Source: an uncultured archaeon
Lineage (GTDB): Archaea; Asgardarchaeota; Jordiarchaeia; Jordiarchaeales; Jordiarchaeaceae
NCBI GenBank assembly: GCA_964510585.1
Contig: CAZECW010000058.1
Location: forward strand, 11,038 to 43,037
DNA length: 32,000 nucleotides
Direction: 5' to 3'
Of this stretch, positions 18,831-31,451 are shown one piece after another. Under the pieces are notes generated by a model. The model ran no database searches and was not told the DNA's origin. It saw only the letters and a list, made by a program, of their open reading frames with translations. A program made the translations under genes and the position numbers. Position 1 is the stretch's first letter. Each line of letters starts with the position of its first letter.

Positions 18831-19317
18831 GGGAGTACCTCTCCTTTTTATAGTTTCTTAGATTTATAGAGTTATTTATTATTTTTTGCTGCCTTAGTGG
18901 TTGACATATTTCCGTCAGCCTACCAATAGATGGCAACTTTTGCATTAATTTTCCGCCGAAACATTGATTCAAGTTGTTTTTAAATTTATAGCTTTTTTTC
19001 TCATTATTAATGCTATTTTAGTTTCCGATAATGGTTCAGTAAAAGGTATTAACTTTATATCGGGAATTGCTTCTGTCTATTAGGGAATTTTGCTTCTGGT
19101 TTTGTTTCAGGCCCTGTTCATGGAAAAAGAGTAGTATGGGAAGATATATAGTTTAGATTTAATAAATAAGTTTAAAATTACAGAAACAAAAAGGGGTTTA
19201 GACCATTAATTCGAATTTTTTATCCCAATTTTTAAATACTGTTTTTAAGGCACATTTTTTAAGTGATACATTTATATTATGGTAACATTTGTTTTAGTAG
19301 AAGGTAAGGTGTTCCAC

Positions 19318-19566
19318 GTGGCAAGAGTAAAAATTGACAGAAAAGTATGCCAGGGATGTGGCAATTGTGTAGCGGTATGTCCCTACGGGATAGAGAGAAG
19401 ACTTTATGAAAGCGGGTTCACCTCTTGCCATGATGGGAACATGGATCAAGCTATCTGTGTAATTAACGGCGTAGCATGCGTAATTAAACCAGAACTATGC
19501 TCTAAATGTAAATATTGGGACTGCGAAAAGGTCTGCCCCAGCGGGGCACTCAAGATTGAAGTGTGA
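19318..19566 (+). CDS. Second 2x[4Fe-4S] ferredoxin (FwdG-like paralog)
   Basis: CQGCGNCVAVCPY and CSKCKYWDCEKVCP; precedes fwdD. GTG 19318 inferred from AAGGTG; open from 19279. Confidence 0.8.
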   Translation: MARVKIDRKVCQGCGNCVAVCPYGIERRLYESGFTSCHDGNMDQAICVINGVACVIKPELCSKCKYWDCEKVCPSGALKIEV

Positions 19567-19581
19567 GGAGGAAAAAGAATA

Positions 19582-19986
19582 ATGTCAAAAAATAACTCCA
19601 TAAAAGCAATTTTGATAACAGGCAGAAGTCTAGACCAAGGCGTAGCCATAGAAAGTGATAAATCTGGGGATATTTACACTAGAGCTTGTGGAAAGGTCTT
19701 CATAGATCCTCAAGATATGAAAAAGCTGAAAATTCTAAGCGGGGACATAGTTCTAGTAAAAACGAAATACGGAGAAGTTGTGGTTAGGGCGGAAAAGTCG
19801 CCAGACGCCCCTCACGAAGGAATCGTGTTTATCCCGATGGGCCCCTGGGCGAATCAGGTTGTAAATCCTTACACTGATTCCACAGGCATGCCTTCCTTTA
19901 AAGGGGTTGATGCCACAGTCGAGCCCGCCCCGGGTAAACCTGTTTTGAGCTCAATCGAACTGGCAAGAAAATTTTTGAAGCAATAG
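19582..19986 (+). CDS. fwdD: Formylmethanofuran dehydrogenase subunit D
   Basis: LITGRSLDQG, VKTKYGEVVV, VFIPMGPWANQV, TGMPSFKG; molybdopterin dinucleotide-binding domain. Confidence 0.93.
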   Translation: MSKNNSIKAILITGRSLDQGVAIESDKSGDIYTRACGKVFIDPQDMKKLKILSGDIVLVKTKYGEVVVRAEKSPDAPHEGIVFIPMGPWANQVVNPYTDSTGMPSFKGVDATVEPAPGKPVLSSIELARKFLKQ

Positions 19987-20009
19987 AGTGATTACAGGAG
20001 GAACAAGTT

Positions 20010-21323
20010 TTGGCTCGGGAAGTTGTAACTGATGTTGTTTGTCCTTTTTGTGGCTCGCTCTGCGATGATGGAGAAATAGTTCTTGAAGAGGGAAAGATAG
20101 TTGAAACTAGAAACCTTTGCACTATTGGTACAACCAAGTTTTTGTCGTCTCAGAATGGACATAGGATAACCAAGCCCATGATTAGAGAGAAGGGCGAACT
20201 TAAGGAGACAACTTTTGATAAGGCAGTAAAAAAGGCGGCAGAGATTCTCGTGAACGCTGAAAGACCACTTCTTTATGGATGGGCCTCAACTGAGTGTGAC
20301 GCCCATCGTGTTGGAATTGAGCTGGCAGAGGAGCTTAACGCAGTCATAGATGACACTGCAAGTGTTTGTCACGGCCCTTCAACTATCGCAAAACAGGAGG
20401 TGGGCCTTCCATCCTGTACATTAGGGCAAGTGAAAAATAGGGCAGACGTTATTATTTATTGGGGTTGTAACCCAGCACATGCACACCCAAGACATATGTC
20501 AAGATATACTACGTTCATCAGGGGCTTTTTCAGGGAACAGGGAAAACAGGATCGAACCCTAATAGTAGTTGATGTGCGCAATACGGATACCGCTAAGCTT
20601 GCAGACCACTTTTTGCAGGTTAAGCCAGGATATGATTATGAGGTTTTAAATGCCCTTAGAGCCATAATTAAGGGACAACCTATCCGTGGAGAAGATGTAG
20701 GCGGAGTACCCGTCTCTAAAATCAAAGAAGTAGCCGAAGTAATGATGAATGCGGGGTTTGGGGTCATTTTCTTCGGTTTGGGACTAACTATGTCTAGAGG
20801 AAAGCATAGAAATGTGGAAAACGCTATTAAGCTCACTATTGAACTTAATGAGTACGCCAAGTTTGTGATTATGGCTATGAGAGGACACTATAATGTTGCA
20901 GGGTTCAGTATTGTTGCTGGTTGGCAGACGGGTTATCCTTTTGGAATAGATTTTCAGAGGGGCTTTCCATACTATAATCCGGGTGAAACTACTTCTAATG
21001 AGATTCTTCAAAGAGAAGAGGCAGACGCTGTGCTTGTTATAGCTTCAGACCCAGTTTCACACTTTCCCGCCAGCAGCATTTCCTACATGGCCAAACTTCC
21101 AGTAATTGTTATTGAGCCCCACGTAACTCCAACTACAGAAATCGCAACAGTGGTTTTACCTTCAGCTATAGCAGGGGTTGAGGAAGAAGGCACCGCCTAT
21201 CGAATGGATCACGTTCCCATTAGATTAAGAAAAGTTGTTGAACCACCAGAAGGCTGCCTATCTGACAGAAAAATTCTAGAAGCCATCCTAAGTGAAGTCA
21301 GAAAACTCAAAAGTAAAACCTAA
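20010..21323 (+). CDS. fwdB: Formylmethanofuran dehydrogenase subunit B (Mo/W-bisPGD catalytic subunit; Cys ligand)
   Basis: CPFCGSLCDD, ASVCHGPS (TGT codon, Cys not Sec), VKNRADVIIYWGCNPAHAHPRH, MRGHYNVAG, YRMDHVPI. Confidence 0.96.
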   Translation: MAREVVTDVVCPFCGSLCDDGEIVLEEGKIVETRNLCTIGTTKFLSSQNGHRITKPMIREKGELKETTFDKAVKKAAEILVNAERPLLYGWASTECDAHRVGIELAEELNAVIDDTASVCHGPSTIAKQEVGLPSCTLGQVKNRADVIIYWGCNPAHAHPRHMSRYTTFIRGFFREQGKQDRTLIVVDVRNTDTAKLADHFLQVKPGYDYEVLNALRAIIKGQPIRGEDVGGVPVSKIKEVAEVMMNAGFGVIFFGLGLTMSRGKHRNVENAIKLTIELNEYAKFVIMAMRGHYNVAGFSIVAGWQTGYPFGIDFQRGFPYYNPGETTSNEILQREEADAVLVIASDPVSHFPASSISYMAKLPVIVIEPHVTPTTEIATVVLPSAIAGVEEEGTAYRMDHVPIRLRKVVEPPEGCLSDRKILEAILSEVRKLKSKT

Positions 21324-21610: not shown

Positions 21611-22087
21611 TTATTCTCTTCTGCTACGCATCCTAGCAAAAAGATCCTTTAATTCGCCTTGTAGTTGCATTCTGGCGCTCATGGGGCCTCCGCCTGCTGG
21701 ACCTTGGCTTGGCCCTAAGCTGGGACCCGGGCTTGGACTGCGAGCTGTAGCCATTCCCCCTGCCCCTCCGTATGATGGAGCTGGTGTTGGGCGTGGGTAG
21801 GGTGATGGCTCTCTTCCGGTGGTTTTGTACTCATAGTCCTCTTCTTGTTCGTAGCCTGCAGGGGCTTTTCTTCTTGTGTCTATGTTCAAAGAGGGGCCTC
21901 CGGAACGCTGGATATCGTTAATTTTGTTTTCTAAACTGTTTAGTCTATTCTCTATTCCGTTCATTCTTCCTTCGAGCATATCTACTGCGTTTAATATTAT
22001 TTTTACTACTCCCGATATGATTTCTGCTAATTCTTTTACCTTTTTATCGTTGGCAAACTCGAGAATCTCGCTAAAATCATCAGACAT
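21611..22087 (-). CDS. Hypothetical protein: coiled coil, Pro/Gly/Ser-rich disordered linker, C-terminal amphipathic helix
   Basis: Heptads LEGRMNG-IENRLNS-LENKIND; PSPYPRPTPAP and PSPGPSLGPSQGP linker; terminal ARMQLQGELKDLFARM. Confidence 0.75.
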   Translation of the reverse strand: MSDDFSEILEFANDKKVKELAEIISGVVKIILNAVDMLEGRMNGIENRLNSLENKINDIQRSGGPSLNIDTRRKAPAGYEQEEDYEYKTTGREPSPYPRPTPAPSYGGAGGMATARSPSPGPSLGPSQGPAGGGPMSARMQLQGELKDLFARMRSRRE

Positions 22088-22391: not shown

Positions 22392-23237
22392 TTATTTAAT
22401 ATTATTTTCATTTTTCTCTTGATCCATTTTTTTCTGCTTTCCGATTCTGCGAATTCTTCCACAGAGTTTTTCCCAGTCAACATATATTAGAGCTAGAAAT
22501 ATAATTACAAGTACTGCTATGCTTGCTATCATTGTTGTTAATCCTGCCTCGCCAGAAAACCATTCAAGTATTGTTTTGCCGAAAAACTCAACATTAGAGA
22601 GAGCCTGTGCACCATAAGCTATAACGCTGCACATAATGACTTTACCAACGATCGTTGCGATAATAGCCTTTACGTAGGAGTAATCAACCAGGCCCAAGGC
22701 TAACATGAGCATATCATCTGGAAGAGGAGTGGCGGCAAATAAAACAATGAAGGGAAAGCCCCAGCCTCGCTCTATCAAGTTCCCATATCTGACTAGGCGT
22801 TGACCATAGCTTGAATCCTTAATTAACTCCTGTCCTCCCCTGCCAATTAGCCAAGCACTGGTTTCACCAACGGCAGCACCGAGACCAGCACAAAGACCAA
22901 TAATTAAAGCATTGGTCCAAGGCCTAAAAAGCATTAAGAACCATAGAAAAATGACATAGGGCACAGGAAGAATGACAGTTAAATTACCTGCAATACTGAC
23001 AAGGAAAACTGCAAAGTATAATCCTATTTCGCCTCCGGGGAAGTAGAGAGTAAACCATAGCATCGACCAAGCTAGGGGGTTTTGCCAGAGTGACAGCATG
23101 TCAAGGAAGAACTGTGGGGGATAAAGGTACCAGACAAGAAAGTTATAGAAAAGGTAGGGAAATATCATTGGATTTGCTATAAAAAAAAGAGGAGTACTCG
23201 CGAAAGCTAGGTATTTTTTCTTTCCTTCATCAAACAT
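22392..23237 (-). CDS. DedA/VTT (SNARE-associated) family membrane protein
   Basis: AGLGAAVGETSAWLIGRG and FAATPLPDD motifs; multiple hydrophobic helices; extra hydrophobic N-terminal region. Confidence 0.8.
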   Translation of the reverse strand: MFDEGKKKYLAFASTPLFFIANPMIFPYLFYNFLVWYLYPPQFFLDMLSLWQNPLAWSMLWFTLYFPGGEIGLYFAVFLVSIAGNLTVILPVPYVIFLWFLMLFRPWTNALIIGLCAGLGAAVGETSAWLIGRGGQELIKDSSYGQRLVRYGNLIERGWGFPFIVLFAATPLPDDMLMLALGLVDYSYVKAIIATIVGKVIMCSVIAYGAQALSNVEFFGKTILEWFSGEAGLTTMIASIAVLVIIFLALIYVDWEKLCGRIRRIGKQKKMDQEKNENNIK

Positions 23238-28717: not shown

Positions 28718-29719
28718 GTGTCTAAATTGACAAAGAGAAGTAAAGTTTGTCCAAGGTGCCAAGCCAAATATCCTCTAACTGATTTTGAATTTTGTAGGTA
28801 TTGCGGAGCCAAACTTGAAGATATAGCCGACTCAGGCAATTTCTTGGGTAGAGGTGAATTTGGTAAAGTAAAGCATAGGACGCTTGCCTCGTGGGGCTGG
28901 ATTCCAGCGGTATTAGGATACGCAGCTTCGTTTATTTTGCTTTTTCTTTTTCAAAACATCCTGTCCATTATAGGAGCATTCTTGGGCCTCCCCTTTATGT
29001 TTGTACCGCTTTTTGATTCATGGGTTGCAACACTGACTCCAGAGTTTCTTGTTTTCATCACTTTGGGCCAGCTCGGCCTAGTAGTAATTCCTCTTTTATA
29101 TCTAAAGATAAGAAATTTACCTCTGAAAGAATTGGGATTTGACTTTGAGAATAAAAAGGAGGTTCAAAATGACATTATGATAGGTACTCTGGGCGGGGGG
29201 ATGATGATGGGAATCTCTTTATTTGTGTCGTGGGCATCAACCCTCACAATTGGGGCACTGTACTCCCCCTTAGACATTTACATGTCAGAAATATTTTCAA
29301 ACATCAATAATGCATCTTTTATGGCAATCCACTTTTATCAATACGTACTGCTGGTTATAAGCATGTTTCTTTTAGTCGCCCCCAGCGAAGAAATATCAAC
29401 TCGAGCATTCCTACAACAAGGACTGGAAAACAGTTTTGGAAGATGGATTGGTCTCATCATCACTGCAATAATCTTTTCAGCCCTGCACATATTGCTCTAC
29501 CCTCAAACTGCAACTGCGATAGGATTCCCAAGCTATATCGGCTCTATATCAGCCATAATAGCCATACCTTCTTATCTCGCCCTCTCCTTAACACTCGGCT
29601 TCCTACTCCAGATAAGAAAATATAGAATAATCACTACAATAACAGCCCACGCAGTCTACATGATAATACTAGTATCAATATACTATTTCCAAAACTACTG
29701 GATTTACCTTTACATATAA
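28718..29719 (+). CDS. CPBP (Abi/Rce1-like) intramembrane metalloprotease with N-terminal Zn ribbon
   Basis: EExxxR (EEISTR), FxxxH (FSALH) and a final His motif (HAVYM); N-terminal CPRC...FCRYCG. Confidence 0.85.
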   Translation: MSKLTKRSKVCPRCQAKYPLTDFEFCRYCGAKLEDIADSGNFLGRGEFGKVKHRTLASWGWIPAVLGYAASFILLFLFQNILSIIGAFLGLPFMFVPLFDSWVATLTPEFLVFITLGQLGLVVIPLLYLKIRNLPLKELGFDFENKKEVQNDIMIGTLGGGMMMGISLFVSWASTLTIGALYSPLDIYMSEIFSNINNASFMAIHFYQYVLLVISMFLLVAPSEEISTRAFLQQGLENSFGRWIGLIITAIIFSALHILLYPQTATAIGFPSYIGSISAIIAIPSYLALSLTLGFLLQIRKYRIITTITAHAVYMIILVSIYYFQNYWIYLYI

Positions 29720-29939: not shown

Positions 29940-30644
29940 TTGGGCAAGAAAGAAGAGAAACTATTACGATTCGTCTCAAAAGTATGCTCCTCCCTAATCA
30001 GCACCTCCAACAAGTACATCGAATCACTCAAAAAAGCACAAGAAGCCTACACCAAACAGATAGAAAAACTCCAAAAAGAACTCGAAAAAGCCGCAAAAGG
30101 AATGGAAATCGAACTCACAGCAGTAGACTTATCCATACCTACCGCCACAGCAGAAGCTGCGGAGGAACCAATAATAACCACAACAACTACACTGGAAACA
30201 TTCGCCAGCAAAACCGCACCAGACGACGTATTTGACATGTTCTCAAAGTCTGGACCCCCAGCCGCAACAGTTACCAGCGCTCCACCAAGTGCCGGTATCC
30301 CACCAAGAGCCGGCGCCCCACCAAGTGCCGGTATCCCACCAAGAGCCGGCGCTCCACCAAGTGCCGGTATCCCACCAAGAGCCGGCGCCCCACCAAGTGC
30401 TGGCGCCCCACCAAGTGCCGGTATCCCACCAAGAGCCGGCGCTCCACCAAGTGCTGGCGCTCCACCAAGTGCCGGTATCCCACCAAGAGCCGGCGCTCCA
30501 CCAAGTGCTGGTGTGCCGAGTGTTTCTGTTCCTCCTCCTGTAGGGGCCGCCACAGTTCAGGATGCTGCCTCTATTACGGATCTTAGGAATGCTATGATGG
30601 CTGAGCTTAGTAGACTGAAGAAGTTGTTTGCTGCAGAGGAATAA
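29940..30644 (+). CDS. Hypothetical protein: coiled coil, 13x PPxAG repeats, C-terminal helix (WH2-like)
   Basis: N-terminal coiled coil YIESLKKAQEAYTKQIEKLQKELEK; Pro-rich repeat block; terminal LRNAMMAELSRLKKLFAAEE; TTG start after GAAGGGT. Confidence 0.78.
   Translation: MGKKEEKLLRFVSKVCSSLISTSNKYIESLKKAQEAYTKQIEKLQKELEKAAKGMEIELTAVDLSIPTATAEAAEEPIITTTTTLETFASKTAPDDVFDMFSKSGPPAATVTSAPPSAGIPPRAGAPPSAGIPPRAGAPPSAGIPPRAGAPPSAGAPPSAGIPPRAGAPPSAGAPPSAGIPPRAGAPPSAGVPSVSVPPPVGAATVQDAASITDLRNAMMAELSRLKKLFAAEE
30282..30515 (+). repeat. In-frame 18-bp tandem repeat, 13 units
   Basis: Units begin CCACCAAG and encode PPSAGI (A), PPRAGA (B), PPSAGA (C), PPSAGV (D) in the order ABABABCABCABD. Confidence 0.95.
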
Positions 30645-31196: not shown

Positions 31197-31451
31197 TTAT
31201 TTGTATTTTAACTCGTATAATTCGCTGCTGTTTGGTATATAGAAGGAATCGTTGAAAAAGATTACAGGTTTTCGGAATAGAACTGCTAGTTTCAAAAATG
31301 GCGATATTTGTTCGTCTCCCTTAAATACAATTTTTGCAGAGATAGCTCCACCTTCCTTAAAATCTGCGGGAACTATTATTGGTACACGCTCTTCCTTTGC
31401 TTTGATTTTTACTTTTTCCGCGAATACTTTTTTCTCGTCCTCTTTAGGCAT
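31197..31451 (-). CDS. Small hypothetical protein
   Basis: 84-aa ATG ORF with GGAGG 8 nt upstream; protein-like composition. Confidence 0.6.
   Translation of the reverse strand: MPKEDEKKVFAEKVKIKAKEERVPIIVPADFKEGGAISAKIVFKGDEQISPFLKLAVLFRKPVIFFNDSFYIPNSSELYELKYK

Follow-up and report, generated by a model that had tools for sequence, protein, structure and literature searches.

Two proteins encoded in one stretch of Asgard archaeal DNA, called A and B below, represent an undescribed, phylum-wide pair of tethered docking-helix families that share one design: a helical head, a long disordered proline-rich tether and a conserved helix at the extreme C-terminus. We think it on balance probable, with considerable reserve, that the whole explanation is right, i.e. 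that these are two related families present across the phylum whose tethered end helix docks on a partner. Asgard archaea possess ESCRT, actin and small-GTPase systems like those of eukaryotes, and to our knowledge the way in which these machines are recruited to membranes and cargo is largely unknown. Near-universal single-copy Asgard families with an almost invariant tethered helix, some of them anchored in the membrane, are good candidates for such recruitment factors. Their motif is short enough for peptide-scale work, so the question of the partner is directly testable in cultured Asgard species.

The window, i.e. the whole stretch of 32,000 nucleotides that was analysed, corresponds to bases 11038-43037 of contig C58 of a 3.78-Mb draft genome. 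A and B are genuine conserved genes of an Asgard archaeon of the Freyarchaeota/Jordarchaeia type; databases label its closest protein relatives Candidatus Freyarchaeota / Jordarchaeia. The two genes, their parts and the neighbouring genes are as follows (window coordinates).

20010-21323 (region 19279-21323), plus strand: gene of a formylmethanofuran-dehydrogenase-like molybdopterin subunit, convergent to A
21611..22087, minus strand: gene of protein A, 158 aa plus stop, A-type member of a phylum-wide Asgard family
21614..21682, minus strand: A tail helix, residues 136-158
21641-21673, minus strand: A motif RMQLQGELKDL, residues 139-149
21683..21904, minus strand: A tether, residues 62-135, rich in Pro, Gly, Ser and Ala, predicted disordered, of different length and sequence between lineages
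21905..22045, minus strand: A head, one long predicted helix, residues 15-61, a conserved block in alignments A1 and A2
22392..23237, minus strand: gene of a VTT/DedA-family membrane protein (Pfam VTT_dom, 2.1e-9), directly upstream of A on the same strand
28718..29719, plus strand: gene of a CPBP/Rce1-like membrane protease (Pfam Rce1-like, 4.1e-10; also a zinc-ribbon), directly upstream of B on the same strand
29940..30644, plus strand: gene of protein B, 234 aa plus stop, TTG start, B-type member
29946..30101, plus strand: B head, a single long predicted helix
30222..30245, plus strand: short conserved acidic-aromatic motif P-D-D-V-F-D-M-F in the B tether
30277..30512, plus strand: tandem repeat of the B tether, 18-bp unit, about 12.9 copies (Tandem Repeats Finder)
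30573..30641, plus strand: B tail helix (AlphaFold2), with invariant columns in alignments A3 and A6
30585-30617, plus strand: B motif RNAMMAELSRL, residues 216-226
31197-31451, minus strand: 84-aa open reading frame downstream of B and convergent with it, conserved within the genus only and matching no family

For A, the AlphaFold2 model based on a 38-sequence alignment shows a short helix (3-13) followed by a long one (15-61), with a pLDDT above 90 for residues 20-60. The tether (62-135) has no secondary structure (pLDDT 52-63), and its columns in alignment A2 are indel-rich and poorly aligned; a C-terminal helix (136-157, pLDDT about 80-89) follows. The model of B has a head helix at 2-53 (pLDDT 90-96) and a C-terminal helix at 211-230 (pLDDT about 80-83) preceded by disorder. 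The models thus agree with a preliminary description of this DNA, which had read in both proteins a coiled coil, a Pro/Gly/Ser-rich tether and a terminal helix. The long head helix of A is probably its oligomerising part.

The repeat in the B tether encodes six-residue units (e.g. APPSAG, IPPRAG). Its copy number varies among close relatives and strains, and the length of the protein ranges from 169 to 241 aa within the genus. Long spurious open reading frames also arise from the repeat, both in its other frames and on the complementary strand (30047-30553 and 30232-30543). In the short motif of this tether P93, V96, F97 and F100 are invariant (alignment A3), and AlphaFold2 places a short helix at 94-101 with low confidence; the motif may be a second docking site. 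Its general form is P-[DE]-x-V-F-[DG]-x-F, and the B-type proteins of other families have a hydrophobic L-F counterpart at the same place.

Neither A nor B matches a family in Pfam or NCBIfam. A sequence and profile search of the PDB gave only chance matches, a search of a protein look-alike atlas returned unnamed archaeal clusters only, and full-text literature searches found no paper describing either family. Longer fused versions of A were also sought and none was found, which is weak evidence.

The 15 close homologues of A (57-86% identity) are all named Asgard hypothetical proteins. Their heads and tails are nearly invariant and their tethers variable, and R139, L142, E145, L146, K147, L149 and F150 are the same in all of them. 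In the alignment of 38 A sequences from the whole phylum the sole invariant columns of the whole protein are E145 and L146; K147 is at least 90% conserved, and the tail consensus reads R-x-x-[LM]-x-G-E-L-K-x-L-F-x-K-R-[RK]. Used as a single-sequence query (threshold E <= 0.01), A has full-length matches in 108 of the 301 Asgard genomes, in many taxonomic families. The members combine the head block, the tether and the tail with its invariant E-L-K, measure about 130-200 aa and occur as one copy per genome.

Among the 11 homologues of B (alignment A3) L214, R215, A217, M218, E221, L222, R224, L225, K226, K227, L228 and F229 are invariant. By single-sequence search the head of B is found in 5/5 genomes of its own genus and 4/5 of the same order, and nowhere outside the order. 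A profile built from the last 32 residues of B detects the tail in 202 of the 301 genomes, with about one match per genome, at the C-terminus of proteins of 200-570 aa and after long Pro-rich tethers. The heads of these B-type proteins are of two kinds: a soluble helix of about 50 residues like that of B (taxonomic families f1, f2, f3, f9 and f12), or an N-terminal transmembrane helix followed by basic residues (f5, f7, f13, f14, f16, f21 and f27). Most lineages have both the A and the B family. The first arginine of the motif (R0) is not universal, being absent from both tail types in family f7.

A third type of protein, with a helix, an acidic Pro-rich tether and an end helix, is encoded at loci L149, L151, L152, L153 and L159 (f17 and f19), i.e. 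in lineages without the B tail. Its own tail reads E-E-L-K-K-K-E-K-D-x-L-K-A-L-S-E-L-E.

The preliminary description had proposed one motif, R-x-x-[LM]-x-x-E-L-x-x-L, common to A and B and carried by proteins with unrelated middles. Both open reading frames and both motif positions proved exact, and the register was recovered by hhalign: the phylum-wide profiles of the A and B tails align in the register of this pattern with a score of 23.3 (P = 2.3e-5, probability 76%). Column shuffles score 8.8 on average (sd 2.2, maximum 19.0; 0/200 reach the real score) and the reversed alignment 13.1. When the whole A and B family profiles are compared, the tails are the sole region aligned (P = 4.5e-4). 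Judged by these profile comparisons, the A and B tails share one motif, conserved across the phylum. As a caveat, B in this genome is missed by a plain HMM built from A tails. An ungapped PSSM of A tails places B 4th among 6370 tails, though with the register shifted.

The likeness may extend beyond the tails. When the alignment of soluble B-type proteins is widened, their heads align with those of A too (full-length E = 2e-8, probability 95%), the tails coming next in the same order. Head-only comparison gives P = 4e-4, against 2.4e-3 for the reversed control and 0.011 for an unrelated all-helical family (hhalign). As the head-only score is close to those of the reversed and coiled-coil controls, it is plausible, short of established, that the heads are distant paralogues. 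Since the heads are possibly homologous, the shared tail may come from common descent, and its independent acquisition is not needed.

Within this genome the strict pattern has 9 matches in open reading frames of at least 100 aa. Three of them lie at most 20 aa from the C-terminus, where 0.7 are expected, and two of these three are A and B. Over all six-frame open reading frames there are 12 matches, only A and B following Pro-rich tethers. A genome screen for a short tail after a Pro-rich (PGSAT) tether likewise retrieves these two as its only plausible genes; 14 further open reading frames pass it and look like non-coding frames. A large in-genome family with this C-terminal motif was rejected because A and B alone have a Pro-rich tether before it. 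The idea of a family of adaptors delivering one helical motif has to be recast: there are two phylum-wide families, with about one copy each per genome, but delivery of a helix by a tether fits the near-invariant B-type tails on switching heads.

Other C-terminal matches of a relaxed pattern were rejected as tethered tails, as they belong to a paralogous set with steadiness-box-like helical hairpins. This set (252-954 aa; G000:C27:22382-25246, C79:21141-23162, C79:27854-28612, C191:18570-20603, C125:16480-17484 and C187:90099-91637) has a common C-terminal helix-turn-helix ending in K-L-x-K-E-L-M-x-L-I-E-x-L-D-K. The member adjoining ESCRT-III combines sub-threshold Zn-ribbon and PH matches with a coiled-coil region and is similar to Znr_PH_CC_SB, a published candidate ESCRT-I component; no Pfam family matches the rest of the set.

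Similar tails do not necessarily mean a common docking site. A and B could follow the same design with different partners, being distant paralogues or merely having similar helices, so that the residues they share would be due to ancestry and helix formation. This would fit the failure of the A-tail HMM to find B, and the B tail itself, in which the near-invariant K147 and the basic terminus of the A tail are missing and R-L-K-K-L-F is invariant instead. It would also fit the different neighbours, which are VTT/DedA and ESCRT genes in the case of A and the gene of a CPBP protease or of an Arf-like GTPase in that of B, and the families f15 and f19, where A is present but no B tail is detected. 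But the tail-to-tail match, in one register, is the best and only strong match between the A and B family profiles, and R0 is lost in parallel from both tails in f7, a single and anecdotal event of which f12 g21 shows no equivalent. We regard different partners as unlikely.

The same absence of R0 from both tails of f7 is what a direct contact between the tails might produce. The A tail could pair with the B tail, a membrane-bound B-type protein recruiting a soluble A oligomer, or each tail could fold back on its own head as in autoinhibition. The ends are complementary (runs of R/K in A, E-E in B), and the families mostly occur together. However, f15 and f19 have A without a detectable B tail, the B-type heads change completely under a constant tail, which is against packing of the tail on the head, and the AlphaFold2 monomer models of A and B (pTM of 0.24-0.30) show no confident tail-head packing. 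Self-association in either form thus appears very improbable.

In the working that we favour, the N-terminal helix would probably oligomerise, and in many B-type relatives it is replaced or preceded by a transmembrane anchor. This head would hold the long disordered proline-rich tether, ending in a helix of about 20 residues with the core [RK]-x-x-hydrophobic-x-x-E-L-x-x-hydrophobic. The end helix would act as a short docking motif, and the tether would give it the reach to explore the surroundings of the head or of the membrane and to catch a conserved partner protein in trans. Because the B-type tail is constant on both soluble and transmembrane heads, docking onto a partner in trans, rather than anchoring in the membrane by the tail itself, is most likely. 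More generally, the tail, which is under stronger constraint than any other part of both families, stays unchanged while the length and the sequence of the tether and the type of head vary, which argues against a membrane-inserting helix as well as against packing on the tail's own head.

For the A tail, a membrane-targeting role has nevertheless some points in its favour. It could be an amphipathic helix with a hydrophobic stripe and then a basic cluster, like the C-terminal helix of MinD or FtsA or the N-terminal helix of ESCRT-III, which it resembles in being terminal and in having a basic end. Its net charge is +2 to +3 and it ends in runs of K/R; its second half weakly matches the L-F-G-K-K-K segment of the ESCRT-III N-terminus (P = 0.045); and the upstream neighbours of both A and B are polytopic membrane proteins. 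But the invariant acidic core residue E145 and the invariant E-L-K triplet point to specific protein recognition, the hydrophobic moment of the whole A tail is low (0.05-0.29) and its mean hydrophobicity negative. The B tail is neutral (net charge 0 to +1) and in many lineages already tethered by a transmembrane helix. Thus A differs from the MinD/FtsA type of amphipathic helix by its moment, its hydrophobicity and E145, and B by its charge, and the related tail of B sits on transmembrane-anchored proteins. A membrane helix seems to us most improbable.

The leading candidate for the partner in trans is the MIT domain of Vps4 or of another MIT protein of the ESCRT system, on which the tail would act like the MIM1 helix that ends ESCRT-III subunits. 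We propose it tentatively and, taken by itself, consider it rather doubtful. Candidate binders encoded in this genome are the MIT domain of Vps4 (G000:C140:9675-10841) and two other MIT-like proteins (C150:34708-35550 and C187:87347-87973). Of the partners guessed in the preliminary description, ESCRT/Vps4 MIT is the one that receives modest indirect support, whereas an actin-like partner has no support from formal tests. The MIM1-like hydrophobic spacing 0/4/7 is present in A (L142, L146, L149) and in B (M219, L223, L226), in both cases in a terminal helix after a disordered tether. In this genome the C-terminus of one ESCRT-III protein reads K-S-S-L-A-S-E-L-E-D-L-K, which is the same pattern, and the C-terminal helices of Asgard ESCRT-III are regarded as MIM1-like (PMC7240154, PMC8970359). 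Against a profile of Asgard ESCRT-III tails the A tail scores 14.0 (P = 0.01) and the B tail 15.8 (P = 0.003), both in the same register and with 0/100 shuffles reaching the real score. The HH probabilities of these matches are low (4-10%), and Glu/Lys/Leu-rich helices match one another easily. When the B tail is compared with the entire ESCRT-III profile, it matches the C-terminal helix best.

The eukaryotic MIM1 consensus [DE]xxLxxRLxxL[KR] differs from the tails at its charged positions: position 3 is E instead of R, position -3 is R/K instead of D/E, and in A the last Leu is followed by F instead of K/R. Asgard ESCRT-III tails themselves carry an acidic residue at position 3. Conservation of their end helices falls far short of that of the A and B tails, and in f7 these helices do not fit the motif. 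No Snf7 (PF03357) match is found in A or B, and hhalign of both families against Asgard ESCRT-III gives short, insignificant matches only.

Gene positions also bear on the MIT candidate. Four families have ESCRT genes at 4-7 kb from the A gene: ESCRT-III in f3 and f20, ESCRT-II and Vps4 in f15, and a MIT-AAA Vps4 in f13. A is not near ESCRT genes in f7, f9, f12 and f19. B is near ESCRT genes only in its own genus, where in a closed genome ESCRT-III is 22.6 kb away from A and about 15 kb away from B. In f17 Snf7 and MIT are detected in 0/4 genomes and actin in 5/5; the B tail is found in 0/5 and the canonical A tail in 1/5. Two counter-cases have to be mentioned: an A-like tail is still encoded in one f17 genome where neither Snf7 nor MIT is detected, and G009 (80% complete) has both tails, no Snf7 and only a sub-threshold MIT match.

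If the tails do bind MIT, A and B could be non-ESCRT-III carriers of a MIM1-type helix, i.e. soluble (A) and membrane- or complex-bound (B-type, in many cases with a transmembrane anchor) adaptors that would recruit Vps4 or another MIT protein to chosen sites. We rate this fuller role as rather unlikely. If true, it would mean that MIT-MIM docking was a general recruitment code beyond ESCRT-III already before eukaryotes arose.

Another candidate partner is the actin system. The proline-rich tether could recruit profilin, and the end helix could occupy the hydrophobic cleft of Lokiactin like WH2/VASP-type helices, linking actin to membranes or complexes. The order of parts in A and B is indeed that of WASP/WAVE/WIP (WH2 and proline-rich) and of Ena/VASP (proline-rich and EVH2), i.e. 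coil, Pro-rich region and short helix, which in B ends in L-K-K-L. The tethers of f7 and f9 have many GPPGG-type repeats, and weak binding of polyproline by some Asgard profilins (PMC8410842) counts in the same direction. Near-invariant tails would suit a very conserved partner such as actin, and in f17 the related third-type protein lies about 13 kb from an actin gene, in one genus only. But f17 keeps actin in all its genomes yet lacks the B tail and mostly the canonical A tail, so the phyletic pattern does not follow actin. No match to WH2 (PF02205) or another actin-binding family was found in A and B (E <= 1) or in 38 members of the A family (E <= 0.01), and none of the chance matches of the PDB profile search supports the actin reading. 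The helix-spacer-LKK[TV] layout of WH2 is absent: in B the L-K-K-L comes two residues after the last hydrophobic position of the helix, which is too short, and A has no LKK at all. Among the 78 A and B loci examined, actin, profilin and gelsolin genes are not recurrent neighbours. A role as actin adaptors is, in our opinion, quite unlikely.

Whatever the partner in trans, recurrent neighbours place both families near membrane proteins. In f1, f3 and f20 the gene immediately upstream of A is the VTT/DedA gene; in f12 it lies about 780 bp upstream of A. This same-strand pair, with 16-300 bp between the genes, recurs at loci L010, L011, L016, L020, L041 and L061-L067, in four taxonomic families, and a UbiA-type prenyltransferase gene often adjoins it. 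The VTT/DedA and UbiA context suggests that the A family is linked to membrane-lipid handling. The CPBP/Rce1-like protease gene precedes B in 9/10 loci of the order, and the soluble head of B may have its membrane partner in this protease. Genes of small GTPases are repeatedly found close to both A and B types. In f27 (loci L129 and L132-L140) the gene of the transmembrane-anchored B-type protein always adjoins that of a 317-aa Arf-family GTPase, and in f3, f7 and f20 a fusion of longin with an Arf/Roc GTPase is found repeatedly at 1.4-3.9 kb from A. The formylmethanofuran-dehydrogenase-like gene neighbours A throughout the order with no evident functional link, and looks like plain conserved synteny.

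Short terminal peptides of other systems offer points of comparison for the A and B tails. A PIP box (QxxhxxFF) was rejected: A reads Q-G-E-L-K-D-L-F here, but family-wide the Gln position is M, N, L or Q, and position 7, the first of the two aromatic positions of the box (7-8), is Leu, Phe, Ala or Val. The MIM1 helix of ESCRT-III is, as in A and B, a short amphipathic helix at the extreme C-terminus, after a flexible linker and with hydrophobic residues at 0, 4 and 7; B alone also has the basic residue that follows them. Unlike ESCRT-III, A and B have no Snf7 core, their charged positions are swapped relative to the eukaryotic consensus and their tails are far more conserved; their binding to MIT is a prediction.

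Conserved C-terminal peptides held on tethers are found in FtsZ (linker and conserved peptide), in ZipA-type proteins (transmembrane anchor and Pro/Gln-rich linker) and in the archaeal ribosomal stalk protein aP1, which has a dimerising head, a flexible hinge and a conserved L-x-x-L-F end. These belong to different cellular systems, and the docking element of A and B is distinct in being a 20-residue helix with an invariant E-L. The likeness is one of layout, named here from general knowledge, and extends in the A tail to an L-x-x-L-F as at the end of aP1. A and B have the same physical design as FtsZ, ZipA and aP1, and presumably the same fly-casting logic.
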